Made by a program: the position numbers and the translations under genes. Below are positions 17,348 through 44,031 of a DNA stretch of 64,000 nt, piece after piece (the first letter of the stretch is position 1; each line of letters starts with the position of its first letter). The DNA is from Escherichia coli (GTDB lineage: Bacteria; Pseudomonadota; Gammaproteobacteria; Enterobacterales; Enterobacteriaceae), in NCBI RefSeq assembly GCF_003334785.1, contig NZ_QOWV01000001.1; one strand, 5' to 3'. A model generated the notes under the pieces. That model searched no databases, was not told the DNA's origin, and saw only the letters and a list, made by a program, of their open reading frames with translations.

Positions 17348-18712
17348 ATGTCTTTCGATTCTTTGGGTTTAAGCCCTGATATCCTGCGCGCCGTTGCCGA
17401 GCAGGGTTACCGTGAACCCACCCCTATTCAGCAGCAGGCGATCCCTGCGGTGCTGGAAGGCCGCGACCTGATGGCTAGCGCCCAGACCGGCACCGGCAAA
17501 ACAGCGGGCTTTACGCTGCCGCTGTTGCAACACCTGATCACTCGCCAGCCGCACGCCAAAGGGCGTCGTCCGGTACGTGCGCTCATTCTTACCCCGACCC
17601 GTGAACTGGCGGCGCAGATTGGCGAAAACGTCCGTGATTACAGCAAATACCTGAACATTCGTTCGCTGGTGGTGTTTGGTGGTGTGAGTATTAACCCGCA
17701 GATGATGAAACTGCGTGGCGGCGTTGATGTGCTGGTGGCAACCCCGGGACGTTTGCTGGACCTGGAACATCAGAATGCAGTGAAGCTGGATCAGGTTGAA
17801 ATCCTCGTCCTCGATGAAGCTGACCGCATGCTCGACATGGGCTTTATCCACGATATCCGTCGCGTGTTAACAAAACTACCTGCGAAGCGCCAGAACCTGT
17901 TATTCTCCGCGACCTTCTCTGACGATATTAAAGCCCTGGCGGAAAAACTGTTGCACAACCCGCTGGAAATCGAAGTGGCACGCCGCAATACCGCGTCTGA
18001 TCAGGTGACCCAGCACGTTCACTTTGTCGATAAGAAACGCAAACGCGAATTGCTGTCGCACATGATTGGGAAAGGGAACTGGCAGCAGGTGCTGGTGTTT
18101 ACCCGTACCAAACACGGCGCTAACCATCTGGCTGAACAGCTCAATAAAGATGGCATCCGTAGTGCGGCGATCCACGGCAATAAATCGCAAGGTGCGCGTA
18201 CTCGTGCGCTGGCTGATTTTAAATCGGGCGATATTCGTGTACTGGTGGCAACTGACATCGCTGCGCGCGGCCTGGATATTGAAGAGCTGCCGCACGTCGT
18301 CAACTATGAACTGCCAAACGTACCTGAAGATTATGTCCACCGTATCGGGCGTACCGGTCGTGCGGCTGCTACCGGTGAAGCGTTGTCGCTGGTGTGTGTT
18401 GATGAACACAAACTGCTGCGTGATATCGAAAAACTGCTGAAAAAAGAGATCCCGCGCATTGCGATTCCGGGCTATGAGCCGGACCCGTCAATCAAAGCCG
18501 AACCGATCCAGAACGGTCGCCAGCAACGTGGCGGCGGCGGTCGTGGGCAAGGTGGTGGTCGCGGTCAACAGCAACCACGCCGTGGGGAAGGTGGCGCAAA
18601 ATCTGCAAGCGCGAAACCTGCAGAAAAACCGTCTCGCCGCCTCGGCGATGCCAAACCGGCAGGCGAACAACAACGTCGCCGCCGTCCGCGTAAACCTGCC
18701 GCTGCGCAGTAA
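17348..18712 (+). CDS. rhlE: RhlE, DEAD-box ATP-dependent RNA helicase (454 aa)
   Basis: Walker [14 protein letters not shown] box [12 protein letters not shown] motif; Arg/Gly-rich basic C-terminal tail. Confidence 0.96.
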
Positions 18713-18764
18713 TCTTTTATGCCGGGCTATGCCCGGCATCAGGCTGATGAACAAACGCAAAACT

Positions 18765-18863
<99 letters not shown>

Positions 18864-18943
18864 TTTCACAACAAGCACTTGTCAGCAATTTGAGAACACG
18901 GGAAAAAATTTATCTGTTTTACCGCCCATAAGCCACCGAGACG

Positions 18944-19426
18944 TTACTTCTCTATAGCCAATTGTTCGCGCAACTCCATTAAAAGGTAGCCCAGTCGATT
19001 CTTGCCCTTACCATGACCACCGTCTCCCCAGTAAGCATCGTTTTCCGTATGCTCAACCAGTTTTGCGGGCGCGGTTGCCAGCAAGAGCGCACGCAGTTCT
19101 GCATGCTGTTCGAATTTAGCGCGAAGTGCTTTTCGCATCACCTGTTCTTTGACCGACTCCCAGTTTTTACGCAGAGGCTTAGAACGATCGCGCCCCATGC
19201 GTGCGGCGACCATAGGGGAAGAAACCCGACGGATCTCTTCGCGGTATTTTTCATCAAGGAATTTTTGTGCCTGAAAATAGTGTTCTGAGGTGGGCCAGGT
19301 TTTCCCGTCAACCTTGATGGGCCAGGCGGCAAAGTTAGAAAAATCACCGTAGTCATCGCTGGTGCTGTAGAAATTTATGATGGTGTCTTGCATGACGTGT
19401 TGGATCCTTTGTGCTCGAACGGGCAT
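18944..19426 (-). CDS. ybiA: YbiA, N-glycosidase acting on riboflavin-biosynthesis intermediates (160 aa)
   Basis: ORF 18944..19426 minus; sequence recognised. Confidence 0.9.
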   Translation of the reverse strand: MPVRAQRIQHVMQDTIINFYSTSDDYGDFSNFAAWPIKVDGKTWPTSEHYFQAQKFLDEKYREEIRRVSSPMVAARMGRDRSKPLRKNWESVKEQVMRKALRAKFEQHAELRALLLATAPAKLVEHTENDAYWGDGGHGKGKNRLGYLLMELREQLAIEK

Positions 19427-19511
19427 TAAACCGCATTATGTTGGTGGTTATTGCGAGCCGCTTTCCAGAAACAGAAAAACCATTACCCCTGAAAACCGAA
19501 AAATGCCACAA

Positions 19512-19531
19512 TATTGGCTGTTTATACAGTA
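19512..19531. promoter_or_regulatory. LexA (SOS) box of dinG, non-canonical left half
   Basis: tattggctgtttatacagta, 15 nt upstream of the dinG ATG; right half ACAGTA canonical, left half TTGG instead of CTGT. Confidence 0.65.
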
Positions 19532-19545
19532 TTTCAGGTTTTCTC

Positions 19546-21696
19546 ATGGCATTAACCGCCGCGCTTAAAGCGCAAATTGCCGCCTGGTATAAGGCGCTTC
19601 AGGAACAGATCCCCGACTTTATTCCCCGTGCGCCGCAGCGGCAGATGATTGCGGACGTCGCCAAAACGCTGGCCGGAGAAGAAGGGCGACATCTGGCGAT
19701 TGAAGCCCCCACCGGCGTTGGGAAAACGCTCTCTTATTTGATTCCCGGCATCGCCATTGCCCGCGAAGAGCAAAAAACGCTGGTGGTGAGTACCGCCAAC
19801 GTGGCATTGCAGGATCAGATTTACAGCAAAGATTTACCGCTGCTGAAAAAGATCATTCCCGATCTTAAATTCACTGCCGCTTTTGGGCGTGGGCGCTACG
19901 TTTGTCCGCGTAATCTGACGGCGCTCGCCAGTACTGAACCCACGCAACAGGATCTGCTGGCGTTTCTTGACGACGAACTGACGCCGAACAATCAGGAAGA
20001 GCAAAAACGTTGTGCGAAGCTGAAGGGCGATCTCGATACTTATAAATGGGATGGTCTGCGCGATCATACTGATATCGCTATAGATGACGATCTCTGGCGT
20101 CGTTTAAGTACCGACAAAGCCAGCTGCCTCAACCGCAATTGTTACTACTATCGTGAATGCCCGTTTTTTGTCGCTCGTCGGGAGATTCAGGAAGCGGAAG
20201 TGGTGGTGGCAAACCATGCGCTGGTGATGGCGGCGATGGAAAGCGAAGCGGTATTGCCTGACCCGAAAAATTTACTGCTGGTGCTGGACGAAGGCCATCA
20301 CCTGCCGGATGTGGCGCGGGATGCGCTTGAGATGAGCGCCGAAATCACCGCGCCGTGGTATCGGCTACAGCTGGACTTGTTCACGAAACTGGTCGCTACC
20401 TGCATGGAGCAGTTTCGCCCGAAGACCATCCCACCGCTGGCGATCCCTGAACGTTTGAATGCGCATTGTGAAGAGTTGTATGAGCTTATCGCCTCGTTAA
20501 ACAACATTCTCAATCTCTACATGCCTGCCGGGCAGGAGGCAGAGCACCGTTTTGCGATGGGCGAACTGCCAGATGAAGTGCTGGAGATCTGCCAGCGGCT
20601 GGCAAAACTCACCGAGATGCTGCGTGGCCTGGCGGAGTTATTTCTTAACGATTTAAGTGAGAAAACCGGCAGCCATGACATTGTACGTCTGCATCGGTTG
20701 ATTTTGCAGATGAACCGCGCGTTGGGGATGTTCGAGGCGCAAAGCAAACTCTGGCGGCTGGCTTCGCTGGCGCAATCTTCCGGTGCACCGGTGACCAAAT
20801 GGGCGACGCGGGAAGAGCGCGAAGGGCAGCTACACCTCTGGTTTCACTGCGTGGGAATACGTGTCAGCGATCAGCTGGAAAGGCTGCTGTGGCGCAGTAT
20901 TCCGCACATTATTGTCACCTCCGCAACCTTGCGTTCGCTGAACAGTTTTTCGCGTTTGCAGGAGATGAGTGGTCTGAAAGAGAAAGCGGGCGACCGTTTT
21001 GTGGCGCTGGATTCCCCCTTTAACCACTGCGAACAGGGCAAAATTGTTATTCCCCGGATGCGCGTTGAGCCTTCCATCGACAACGAAGAGCAGCATATTG
21101 CCGAAATGGCGGCCTTTTTCCGTAAGCAGGTGGAGAGCAAAAAACATCTCGGTATGTTGGTACTGTTTGCCAGCGGACGGGCGATGCAGCGCTTTCTCGA
21201 CTATGTGACGGATTTACGTCTGATGTTGCTGGTTCAGGGCGATCAGCCGCGTTACCGTTTAGTTGAACTGCACCGCAAACGCGTCGCCAACGGTGAGCGC
21301 AGCGTGCTGGTGGGCTTACAGTCATTTGCCGAAGGGCTTGATTTGAAAGGTGATCTGCTCAGCCAGGTGCATATCCACAAAATCGCTTTTCCGCCCATCG
21401 ACAGCCCGGTGGTGATCACCGAAGGGGAATGGCTGAAAAGCCTCAACCGCTATCCGTTTGAGGTGCAAAGCCTGCCGAGCGCCTCGTTTAACCTGATTCA
21501 GCAGGTTGGGCGACTGATTCGAAGCCACGGTTGCTGGGGCGAAGTGGTTATCTACGACAAACGCTTGCTGACCAAAAATTATGGCAAGCGACTACTGGAT
21601 GCATTACCGGTATTTCCGATAGAGCAACCGGAAGTCCCTGAAGGTATAGTTAAAAAGAAAGAAAAAACGAAATCCCCACGCCGTCGGCGGCGTTAA
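19546..21696 (+). CDS. dinG: DinG, ATP-dependent DNA helicase (716 aa)
   Basis: ORF 19411..21696; start at internal ATG 19546 (MALTAALKAQ); Walker A APTGVGKTL; DEGHH motif; Cys cluster consistent with an Fe-S domain. Confidence 0.95.
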   Translation: MALTAALKAQIAAWYKALQEQIPDFIPRAPQRQMIADVAKTLAGEEGRHLAIEAPTGVGKTLSYLIPGIAIAREEQKTLVVSTANVALQDQIYSKDLPLLKKIIPDLKFTAAFGRGRYVCPRNLTALASTEPTQQDLLAFLDDELTPNNQEEQKRCAKLKGDLDTYKWDGLRDHTDIAIDDDLWRRLSTDKASCLNRNCYYYRECPFFVARREIQEAEVVVANHALVMAAMESEAVLPDPKNLLLVLDEGHHLPDVARDALEMSAEITAPWYRLQLDLFTKLVATCMEQFRPKTIPPLAIPERLNAHCEELYELIASLNNILNLYMPAGQEAEHRFAMGELPDEVLEICQRLAKLTEMLRGLAELFLNDLSEKTGSHDIVRLHRLILQMNRALGMFEAQSKLWRLASLAQSSGAPVTKWATREEREGQLHLWFHCVGIRVSDQLERLLWRSIPHIIVTSATLRSLNSFSRLQEMSGLKEKAGDRFVALDSPFNHCEQGKIVIPRMRVEPSIDNEEQHIAEMAAFFRKQVESKKHLGMLVLFASGRAMQRFLDYVTDLRLMLLVQGDQPRYRLVELHRKRVANGERSVLVGLQSFAEGLDLKGDLLSQVHIHKIAFPPIDSPVVITEGEWLKSLNRYPFEVQSLPSASFNLIQQVGRLIRSHGCWGEVVIYDKRLLTKNYGKRLLDALPVFPIEQPEVPEGIVKKKEKTKSPRRRRR

Positions 21697-21723
21697 TGAT
21701 GTGAGTCAGGTAAGGAGTCGTAA

Positions 21724-22686
<963 letters not shown>

Positions 22687-22692
22687 TTCTTT

Positions 22693-22769
<77 letters not shown>

Positions 22770-22814
22770 ACGCCCGGCGTGCAGCATAAAAATACAACAA
22801 ACACATAACATAAA

Positions 22815-23910
<1,096 letters not shown>

Positions 23911-42220: not shown

Positions 42221-42438
42221 GTTAAGCGAGATTTTGTGCCTGGCAGGCCATTGGGTTGAGAATATTAGAGTATTGGAAGCGCATTATAAGTTCATTCCAG
42301 CTCACAGTGAAATCAGATGTGTACGAAATCACATTTTTTGCCTTTGGCTTGAGTGTAGACCTTAAGCGAGGAGCAGGATCTTCTTTCAGACTTATGGCAT
42401 AATGCGCGGTTTGTCATATCTCTTTTCAGGATACGCCT

Positions 42439-44031
42439 GTGTTAGTTTCCAGTAACGTCACCATGCAGTTCGGCAGTAAGCCGTTGTTTGAAAACATTTC
42501 CGTCAAATTTGGCGGCGGCAACCGTTACGGCCTGATTGGCGCGAACGGTAGTGGTAAATCCACCTTTATGAAGATCCTCGGCGGCGACCTTGAGCCGACG
42601 CTGGGTAACGTTTCCCTCGATCCCAACGAGCGCATTGGTAAACTGCGTCAGGATCAGTTTGCCTTTGAAGAGTTCACTGTGCTGGATACGGTGATCATGG
42701 GGCATAAAGAGTTGTGGGAAGTGAAGCAGGAGCGCGACCGCATCTATGCTTTGCCGGAAATGAGTGAAGAAGACGGCTATAAAGTGGCCGATCTGGAAGT
42801 TAAATACGGCGAAATGGACGGTTACTCTGCGGAAGCTCGCGCCGGTGAACTGTTGCTTGGCGTGGGAATTCCAGTGGAACAGCACTACGGCCCGATGAGT
42901 GAAGTTGCTCCTGGCTGGAAGCTGCGTGTGCTTCTGGCGCAGGCGCTGTTTGCTGATCCGGATATTCTCCTGCTCGACGAACCGACCAACAACCTCGACA
43001 TCGACACCATTCGCTGGCTGGAACAGGTGCTGAACGAGCGTGACAGCACCATGATCATCATCTCGCACGACCGTCACTTCCTTAACATGGTCTGTACCCA
43101 CATGGCGGATCTGGATTACGGCGAGCTGCGCGTTTATCCGGGTAACTACGATGAGTACATGACGGCGGCGACCCAGGCGCGTGAACGTCTGCTGGCCGAT
43201 AACGCCAAGAAGAAAGCGCAGATTGCTGAGTTGCAATCTTTCGTTAGCCGCTTTAGCGCCAACGCCTCGAAATCTCGCCAGGCAACTTCGCGCGCGCGCC
43301 AGATTGATAAAATCAAACTGGAAGAGGTGAAAGCCTCCAGCCGTCAGAACCCGTTCATCCGTTTTGAACAGGATAAGAAACTGTTCCGTAACGCGCTGGA
43401 AGTGGAAGGTCTGACCAAAGGGTTTGATAACGGTCCGCTGTTTAAAAATCTCAACCTGCTGCTGGAAGTGGGTGAAAAACTGGCGGTACTGGGTACCAAC
43501 GGCGTCGGTAAATCAACGCTGCTGAAAACGCTGGTGGGCGATCTGCAACCGGACAGCGGCACCGTAAAATGGTCTGAGAACGCGCGCATTGGTTACTATG
43601 CTCAGGACCACGAATATGAGTTTGAAAATGATCTGACCGTGTTCGAATGGATGAGCCAGTGGAAGCAGGAAGGCGATGACGAGCAGGCGGTACGCAGTAT
43701 TCTCGGTCGTTTGCTGTTCAGCCAGGACGACATCAAAAAGCCAGCTAAAGTGCTTTCCGGTGGGGAAAAAGGGCGGATGCTGTTTGGTAAGTTAATGATG
43801 CAGAAGCCGAACATTCTGATCATGGACGAACCGACCAACCACCTGGATATGGAATCCATTGAGTCGCTGAACATGGCACTGGAACTGTATCAGGGCACGC
43901 TGATCTTTGTTTCACACGACCGTGAGTTCGTAAGCTCCCTGGCGACCCGCATTCTGGAAATCACCCCGGAACGCGTGATCGACTTTAGCGGTAATTACGA
44001 AGATTACCTGCGTAGTAAAGGGATCGAGTAA
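42439..44031 (+). CDS. ybiT: YbiT, ABC-F family ATPase (530 aa)
   Basis: Two Walker A motifs ([18 protein letters not shown]), no TM domain; GTG start at 42439. Confidence 0.92.

Follow-up and report, generated by a model that had tools for sequence, protein, structure and literature searches.

Organization of the dinG–ybiB locus

The window, the whole stretch of E. coli DNA that was analysed (64,000 nucleotides), contains dinG and, on the same strand, ybiB as the second gene of a putative operon, with ybiA divergently oriented upstream (Table 1). Positions 18900–22800 match many E. coli chromosomes with 100% identity, and the genes annotated there are ybiA, dinG, and ybiB; in MG1655 they are b0798–b0800 at 832468–836210. 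A first-pass annotation of the sequence had given the length of the intergenic region (19427–19545) as 119 bp, which agrees with a ybiA start codon at 19426–19424 on the minus strand and a dinG ATG at 19546. A search of positions 18600–22900 against Rfam found nothing in this spacer. The same search detected REP-type elements at 18786–18883, in the gap towards which rhlE and ybiA converge; of these, ES036/CssrF scored above the gathering score and naRNA4 below it.

Table 1. Coordinates, strand, and basis of assignment for features at the dinG–ybiB locus, as positions in the 64-kb window
Feature	Position	Strand	Basis and remarks
ybiA (NADAR-family N-glycosidase / guanine de-ADP-ribosylase), divergent accessory neighbour	18944–19426	−	annotation
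Candidate ybiA −10 element, CATAAT	19435–19440	−	5/6 match, no usable −35; low confidence
Ancestral Escherichia spacer upstream of dinG	19446–19545	+	alignment of L003, L004, L006, and L083 with the window
Weak −35-like hexamer, TTACCC	19483–19488	+	3/6 match, 18 nt upstream of CACAAT; low confidence
Predicted extended −10 element of dinG	TG 19504–19505, variable base, CACAAT 19507–19512	+	conservation, lenient promoter scan
LexA operator (SOS box) of dinG, asymmetric, TA-TTGG-CTGTTTAT-ACAG-TA	19512–19531		sequence, score, literature, conservation
Predicted dinG transcription start	19519–19520	+	7–8 nt after the −10 hexamer, inside the LexA box
Alternative leftward extended −10 element, TGaAATACT	19528–19536	−	lenient scan, overlaps the right end of the box; speculative
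Likely dinG Shine–Dalgarno remnant, CAGG	19535–19538	+	7 nt before the ATG
dinG, ATP-dependent DNA helicase, 716 aa	19546–21696	+	ORF and RefSeq annotation
ybiB ribosome binding site (RBS), AAGGAG	21712–21717	+	6 nt upstream of the ybiB ATG (21724)
ybiB (TrpD2-family DNA-binding protein), second operon gene	21724–22686	+	annotation, ORF
Terminator-like hairpin after ybiB	22697–22725	+	10-bp stem, 6-nt loop, short U run

The dinG reading frame ends in tandem in-frame stop codons (TAA TGA, 21694–21699). The earlier annotation had placed ybiB 27 nt after dinG with its own RBS and a terminator behind it, and had proposed a dinG–ybiB operon on these grounds. The 27-nt gap and the RBS were both present as described, and no terminator-like site was found within the gap. 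The terminator stood in part: a G+C-rich hairpin at 22697–22722 is stable (−18.3 kcal/mol, z = −4.56), but it is followed by only a short U tract (UUUA), and for this reason it was missed by a strict terminator scan. The operon itself is supported by the shared strand, the short gap, the co-regulation described in the literature, and a conserved adjacency, as ybiB comes directly after dinG in 62 of the 79 loci that could be assessed, mostly with gaps of 25–31 nt, and also in Erwiniaceae. The gene is missing after dinG in Enterobacter and some Citrobacter. In a UV tiling-array study "ybiB, dinG" was reported as a single UV-induced transcript with the dinG box upstream (PMC3009722), and dinG–ybiB has elsewhere been treated as a LexA-regulated operon (PMC10123104).

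Sequence and score of the LexA box

The 20-mer TATTGGCTGTTTATACAGTA occupies the plus strand at the position of the operator in Table 1. It had been described as a LexA box about 15 nt upstream of the dinG ATG with a canonical right half (ACAG) and TTGG in place of CTGT on the left; reading of the sequence confirmed both halves, and the distance was right to within one base, as 14 nt separate the box from the ATG (19546–19548). For scoring, a symmetric LexA matrix was built in leave-one-out fashion: the dinG box was set aside, and the remaining 17 SOS boxes of PMC3009722 (Table 4) were used. When both strands of the 64-kb window were scored with this matrix, the dinG box reached 14.8 bits and ranked first among approximately 128,000 positions. 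No better site was present in the intergenic region (19427–19545), where no other 20-mer exceeded the −5.5 bits of the runner-up, and the first-pass identification thus withstood the matrix check. The chance rate was estimated from 200 dinucleotide-preserving shuffles of the window: a score of at least 14.8 bits was found 0.11 times per shuffled 64-kb window, corresponding to 1.7e-6 per position and approximately 2e-4 per 119-bp spacer.

The score is unevenly distributed over the box, with 14.2 bits coming from the right half and 0.4 bits from the left. Six left-half positions match the consensus (T1, A2, T4, G5, T8, and T10), and penalties arise at T3, where the consensus is C, and at C7, where it is A. 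The invariant CTG-N10-CAG pattern is accordingly incomplete, with dinG having TTG-N10-CAG and five of the six invariant bases, so its membership among LexA operators rests on functional grounds instead. The score lies near those of accepted weak boxes in the same matrix (polB, 13.9 bits; dinB, 16.8 bits). The heterology index (HI) computed here was 11.4–12.8 for dinG and 8–12 for polB, and the dinG box is thus within the range of validated LexA operators.

A palindrome inside the box, CTGT-TTAT-ACAG (19518–19529), was considered as a LexA site with 4-nt spacing and rejected, because the shifted frames score −9 to −10 bits and LexA sites require 8 nt between CTGT and ACAG. The second-best match in the window, TACTGGATGCATTACCGGTA at 21593–21612 (13.0 bits), lies within dinG approximately 110 nt before ybiB. 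As an operator it was likewise rejected, since synonymous changes destroy it outside Escherichia; the median best score of this site across loci was −1.9, with at least 12 bits in 3 of 80 loci. Judged by this comparison, the match is a coincidence of coding sequence. Another match, GCCTGTGTTAGTTTCCAGTA at 42435–42454 (12.2 bits), retains CTG-N10-CAG and overlaps the GTG with which a 530-aa ORF begins (42439–44031, plus strand; probably ybiT, judging by its N-terminus); matches of about 12.2 bits to this matrix are not rare by chance. The fourth-best match, AACCAGATAGTTATACAGCA at 9391–9410 (11.05 bits), is inside a 413-aa minus-strand ORF (8974–10215) and probably arose by chance.

The dinG site in the literature

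The dinG site is a long-published asymmetric LexA operator and, as such, an ordinary and already described one. Lewis & Mount 1992 (J Bacteriol 174:5110) names an asymmetric dinG operator in its title, and both this paper and Lewis, Jenkins & Mount 1992 (J Bacteriol 174:3377) are cited in PMC8378479. The published operator of E. coli K-12 is at the same locus and consists of the same 20 bp, with no sequence difference from the window. The MEME SOS-box tables of motifs upstream of UV-induced genes also give the identical sequence for dinG (PMC3009722); dinG is named in reviews among the genes with a known SOS box, and the literature describes LexA as the repressor of the dinG promoter.

That dinG is SOS-inducible, which the first-pass annotation had taken as established, agrees with induction data for AZT, UV, ciprofloxacin, and bleomycin, and for nalidixic acid in Salmonella. 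In the AZT study, the HI of dinG was 8.6, its induction 3.2-fold, and its lexA dependence (cleavable LexA versus lexA3) 1.7-fold (PMC11228462). A ciprofloxacin time course gave an HI of 8.65 and induction of up to log2 1.7 (PMC11002266), and bleomycin induced dinG 1.7-fold and ybiB 2.0-fold, with no SOS induction in recA (PMC3305319, Table 1). The dinG gene of Salmonella, with a single box 14 nt from its start and an HI of 10.08, was induced 10.6-fold by nalidixic acid (PMC8072944). The published HI of dinG in E. coli is below the usual cut-off of 15.

Compared with canonical gammaproteobacterial boxes (recA, sulA, umuDC, sbmC: TACTGTATATATATACAGTA), the dinG box has the same 20-bp frame, the same right half, the TG at positions 4–5, and an AT-rich spacer, and like them it would overlap the promoter or transcription start of a gene induced by DNA damage. 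They differ at position 3, which is an otherwise invariant C in the canonical boxes and T in dinG, and position 7 of the dinG box is C. Strong boxes score 20–29 bits with an HI of 2–5, whereas dinG scores 14.8 bits with a published HI of approximately 8.6. Other weak or atypical sites in E. coli are the operators of polB (HI ~12.6) and yoaA (HI 13), which are low-affinity sites at modestly induced repair helicase or polymerase genes (PMC11228462). Both of these retain CTG as well as CAG, and the yoaA box has been validated by mutagenesis of CTG and CAG; dinG, in contrast, is weak specifically through one broken invariant triplet.

Conservation of the box in Enterobacteriaceae and Erwiniaceae

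Sampling one genome per species resulted in 80 Enterobacteriaceae dinG loci, and 81 sequences entered the column statistics. A first protein search had returned relatives all of at least 87% identity and added no taxa. The LexA box is kept upstream of dinG in all 80 Enterobacteriaceae loci and in Shimwellia, Cedecea, and Buttiauxella, at 11–16 nt from the dinG ATG overall and at 13–16 nt in the 80 loci; these last three genera, which are basal Enterobacteriaceae, have the same asymmetric box. Among the 81 sequences, the mean major-allele frequency was 0.987 over the box, compared with 0.56 (0.558) over the upstream flank and 0.74 (0.739) at third codon positions of dinG. The six consensus-matching left-half positions are conserved in 80–81 of the 81 sequences. 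Position 3 is the sole freely varying position of the left half, with G in 76 sequences, T in four (all Escherichia), and A in E. whittamii. Counting the window, 84 Enterobacteriaceae sequences were sampled, and none has the canonical C at this position. Of 5,422 complete E. coli genomes, 5,394 share an identical 74-nt segment at 19487–19560.

Conservation extends leftward from the box into a promoter-like element. A 29-nt block consisting of TG-n-CACAAT and the box is approximately 97–99% invariant in the 81 sequences, while the flanks diverge. The last T of the CACAAT hexamer is box position 1 (19512), so that the box adjoins the conserved TGnCACAAT and covers the predicted dinG start. The 81 sequences carry the signature of an extended −10 (TGn) element: TG is present in all 81, the next base is free (C in 64, T in 11, G in four, and A in two), and A2, A4, A5, and T6 of the hexamer are found in all 81. 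A strict promoter scan returned nothing in the spacer (19427–19545); in the lenient scan that was then used, TGcCACAAT was the best plus-strand candidate. No conserved −35 element was found upstream of the TG in the 81 sequences. The weak −35-like TTACCC in the window is not conserved between genera, nor is it retained in strain SF-088, in which homology to the window starts at 19487 beside a prophage. From the position of the extended −10 element we infer a dinG start at approximately 19519–19520; a literature search yielded no useful mapped dinG promoter or start. The CAGG/CGG motif at the likely ribosome binding site of dinG is kept in most of the 73 distinct upstream sequences.

Outside the family, dinG loci of Erwiniaceae (Pantoea ananatis, Erwinia amylovora, and a Rosenbergiella-like contig) resemble those of Enterobacteriaceae in having a LexA box directly upstream of the orthologous dinG–ybiB pair. 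The Erwiniaceae boxes are, however, canonical (CTGT-N8-ACAG), of the form TACTGTGTAAAAATACAG(G/C)C, and score 19–21 bits. Boxes of this form (TACTGTGTAAAAATACAGG/CC) lie 23–25 nt from the ATG, compared with the 11–16 nt of Enterobacteriaceae. The asymmetry is thus common to all sampled Enterobacteriaceae, and canonical boxes are found in more distant relatives. In a relative whose DinG shows 53% identity, TGgCAAAAT precedes TACTGGCTAAAAACACAGCT, with TACTGGCT... at the place of the box. DinG homologues at 36–40% identity had no LexA box within 300 nt and are silent on the origin of the asymmetry.

In three Erwiniaceae loci (L086, L095, and L096), the sequence just after the canonical box, ATACAGGCTGTTT, matches the Enterobacteriaceae sequence ATAGTGGCTGTTT at 11 of 13 positions in a comparison with 19507–19523 of the window, and the Erwiniaceae box lies approximately 10–14 nt further from the ATG than the Enterobacteriaceae box. 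Because of this likeness and the greater distance, the Enterobacteriaceae operator may have arisen by a shift of the box by about 14 nt rather than by a simple C-to-G change at position 3.

Two loci depart from the general arrangement. In one assembly (GCA_000711175.1, contig BAYU01000002.1; 67% identity over the DinG N-terminus), dinG is split into two ORFs, probably by a frameshift, and a TGcGACAAT-like element is kept upstream with no LexA box (best score −0.3). In the E. coli blood-culture isolate AHB21 (NZ_OZ547226.1), an ISL3-like element with an ISKox3 transposase is inserted inside the dinG operator and promoter at approximately 19517/19518 in window coordinates, with homology resuming at 19518, so that the extended −10 element is split from the start region; ybiA in this isolate has an internal stop codon.

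ybiA as an accessory neighbour

The first-pass annotation had regarded the spacer as a divergent ybiA/dinG control region. This description was not borne out, as the arrangement is not a conserved unit: among the loci compared, the divergent layout is specific to Escherichia, and it is polymorphic within E. coli. In none of the 76 loci sampled from other genera does ybiA precede dinG; there rhlE, on the same strand as dinG, usually ends 100–150 nt before dinG. Of 5,422 complete E. coli genomes, 3,429 contain at least 80% of a query consisting of ybiA plus the spacer, and approximately 37% fall below 80%. No ybiA match was found upstream of dinG in E. whittamii or in E. coli E69, the latter having rhlE directly upstream of dinG, and in E. 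albertii the gene is degraded. In K-12-type strains ybiA is intact, and in others its place is taken by a truncated NADAR pseudogene, by espX2, which encodes a type III effector (O157), or by the end of a prophage (SF-088). Comparison with seven further loci (L003–L006 and L083–L085) marks positions 18944–19445 of the window as a variable spot in Escherichia.

In strains lacking an intact ybiA, homology to the window begins at 19432, 19451, or 19487, and the spacer at 19446–19545 is common also to Escherichia genomes without ybiA. Where a prophage or espX2 lies upstream, only 59–95 nt are left before the dinG ATG. From these truncated strains it follows that the conserved dinG control unit comprises at most the last ~59 nt and that ybiA is a later neighbour; the region is therefore better described as a dinG control region that ybiA has come to adjoin.

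A consensus ybiA promoter was not found in 19427–19545 by either the strict or the lenient scan, which gave weak candidates only. The candidate −10 element CATAAT lies in a spacer segment specific to ybiA-bearing strains, with 8 nt (19427–19434) between it and the ATG annotated for ybiA, and its position suggests a leaderless or near-leaderless ybiA mRNA. The annotated ATG (19426) has no recognisable Shine–Dalgarno sequence (19424–19445). An in-frame ATG 11 codons downstream (19393) is preceded by AAGGA (19391–19412, minus strand). The annotated ybiA start may thus be questionable, with the ATG at 19393 as a candidate alternative.

A question of wider interest is whether YbiA is damage-inducible through the dinG box. 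The operator could be bidirectional, with the dinG LexA site also repressing leftward transcription of ybiA and making the NADAR enzyme an SOS member in ybiA-bearing E. coli. The leftward promoter would then be TGaAATACT (19536–19528), facing the dinG promoter across the box with a start inside it; its minus-strand TGn and AATACT overlap box positions 17–20. What speaks for such an arrangement is a bleomycin experiment in which ybiA was induced 2.7-fold in the wild type in LB, more than either ybiB or dinG, with no SOS induction reported in recA (PMC3305319, Table 1), and TGaAATACT is the only geometry found that could explain this induction. The paper on the NADAR enzyme also describes a K-12-type ybiA in a LexA-controlled locus, although its "operon" wording is loose, ybiA being on the opposite strand. 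The expression evidence is, however, a single microarray. ybiA is absent from the main texts of the UV tiling-array (PMC3009722), AZT (PMC11228462), and ciprofloxacin (PMC11002266) papers and from the supplements of the first and last of these, whereas the ciprofloxacin supplement contains ybiB and dinG. Nor was ybiA found on standard SOS gene lists in the literature examined. TGaAATACT is a weak consensus match and is only partly retained in genera without ybiA. The centre of the box is approximately 95 bp from the ybiA ATG, and the best ybiA −10-like element, CATAAT (19440–19435), is too far from the box for repression. The gene is moreover absent from this position outside Escherichia and from a third of E. 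coli genomes, so that the operator did not evolve for ybiA. On balance, LexA control of ybiA is conceivable and rather doubtful. If it were true, SOS control would extend to YbiA, an enzyme shown in vitro to take ADP-ribose off guanine in DNA.

A LexA operator proposed to overlap the dinG promoter

The sequence of the site, its score, its uniqueness, its conservation, and the operon layout were all observed directly, and LexA binding and LexA dependence are taken from the literature. Together they make it highly probable that positions 19512–19531 are the LexA operator of the dinG–ybiB operon and that this operator would occlude a predicted extended −10 promoter, the promoter, the start, and the occlusion being deduced from conservation. 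A LexA dimer would be bound on 19512–19531 through a consensus right half (TATACAGTA) and a degenerate left half. As the operator begins at the last base of TGcCACAAT (19504–19512) and spans the predicted start, overlapping both, bound LexA would block RNA polymerase. Upon DNA damage, RecA-stimulated self-cleavage of LexA would free the promoter, and dinG and ybiB would be co-transcribed up to the hairpin at 22697–22722. Because one half-site is weak, the operator should be middling to weak, and a published HI of approximately 8.6 fits the small reported induction ratios.

Several observations count against this account, namely that the site departs from the otherwise invariant CTG...CAG pattern at one of six positions, that the left half is nearly silent in the matrix score, that the strict promoter scan returned nothing in the spacer, and that the reported lexA dependence of dinG is small, at 1.7-fold (PMC11228462). 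It could be asked whether LexA reads the right half alone, with repression via one specific and one non-specific monomer contact, the left half being conserved as the discriminator and start region of the promoter. Such a reading would account for the 0.4 bits of the left half against 14.2 bits of the right, for the inclusion of the non-consensus C7 and G9 among the conserved left-half bases, and for the contiguity of the conserved block with the −10 element. The near-total conservation of left-half positions 6–10 (GCTGT, two of them non-consensus) may indeed reflect promoter or start constraints rather than LexA contacts. Against a reading by the right half alone, T1, A2, T4, G5, T8, and T10 match the consensus and are conserved in nearly every sequence, and in the relative with 53% DinG identity the TACTGGCT... 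beside TGgCAAAAT makes the left half look like a true half-site minus one base. By its title, Lewis & Mount 1992 moreover regards the site in its entirety as a single asymmetric operator. We thus consider it unlikely that the right half acts alone and favour a single asymmetric operator bound by a LexA dimer. An accidental resemblance to a LexA box, with dinG induction caused otherwise, is effectively refuted by conservation and the literature and has a negligible probability, for although a score of at least 14.8 bits occurs somewhere in about 10% of shuffled 64-kb windows, only about 2e-4 such sites are expected in the 119-bp spacer, over 80 species share the site, invariant and at a constant spacing from dinG, an even better box is present at Erwiniaceae dinG, and the site is the subject of a dedicated binding paper and is backed by several expression studies made independently.

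Implications

The finding confirms textbook SOS biology, and the comparative results are small refinements to it. What is novel here is the comparative view only, that is, the family-wide conservation, the extended −10 signature, the canonical Erwiniaceae box, and the accessory nature of ybiA. ybiA emerges as a dispensable gene that came to adjoin dinG recently and did not co-evolve with it as a divergent partner. The 29-nt unit of operator and extended −10 element is frozen across Enterobacteriaceae, and the asymmetry is a family-wide property rather than a peculiarity of E. coli. Its maintenance throughout the family, compared with the canonical box in three Erwiniaceae loci, would suggest selection for weak repression of dinG. 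The site illustrates that a LexA operator can lose one "invariant" base and still regulate, resulting in a weakly repressed and modestly induced repair helicase.
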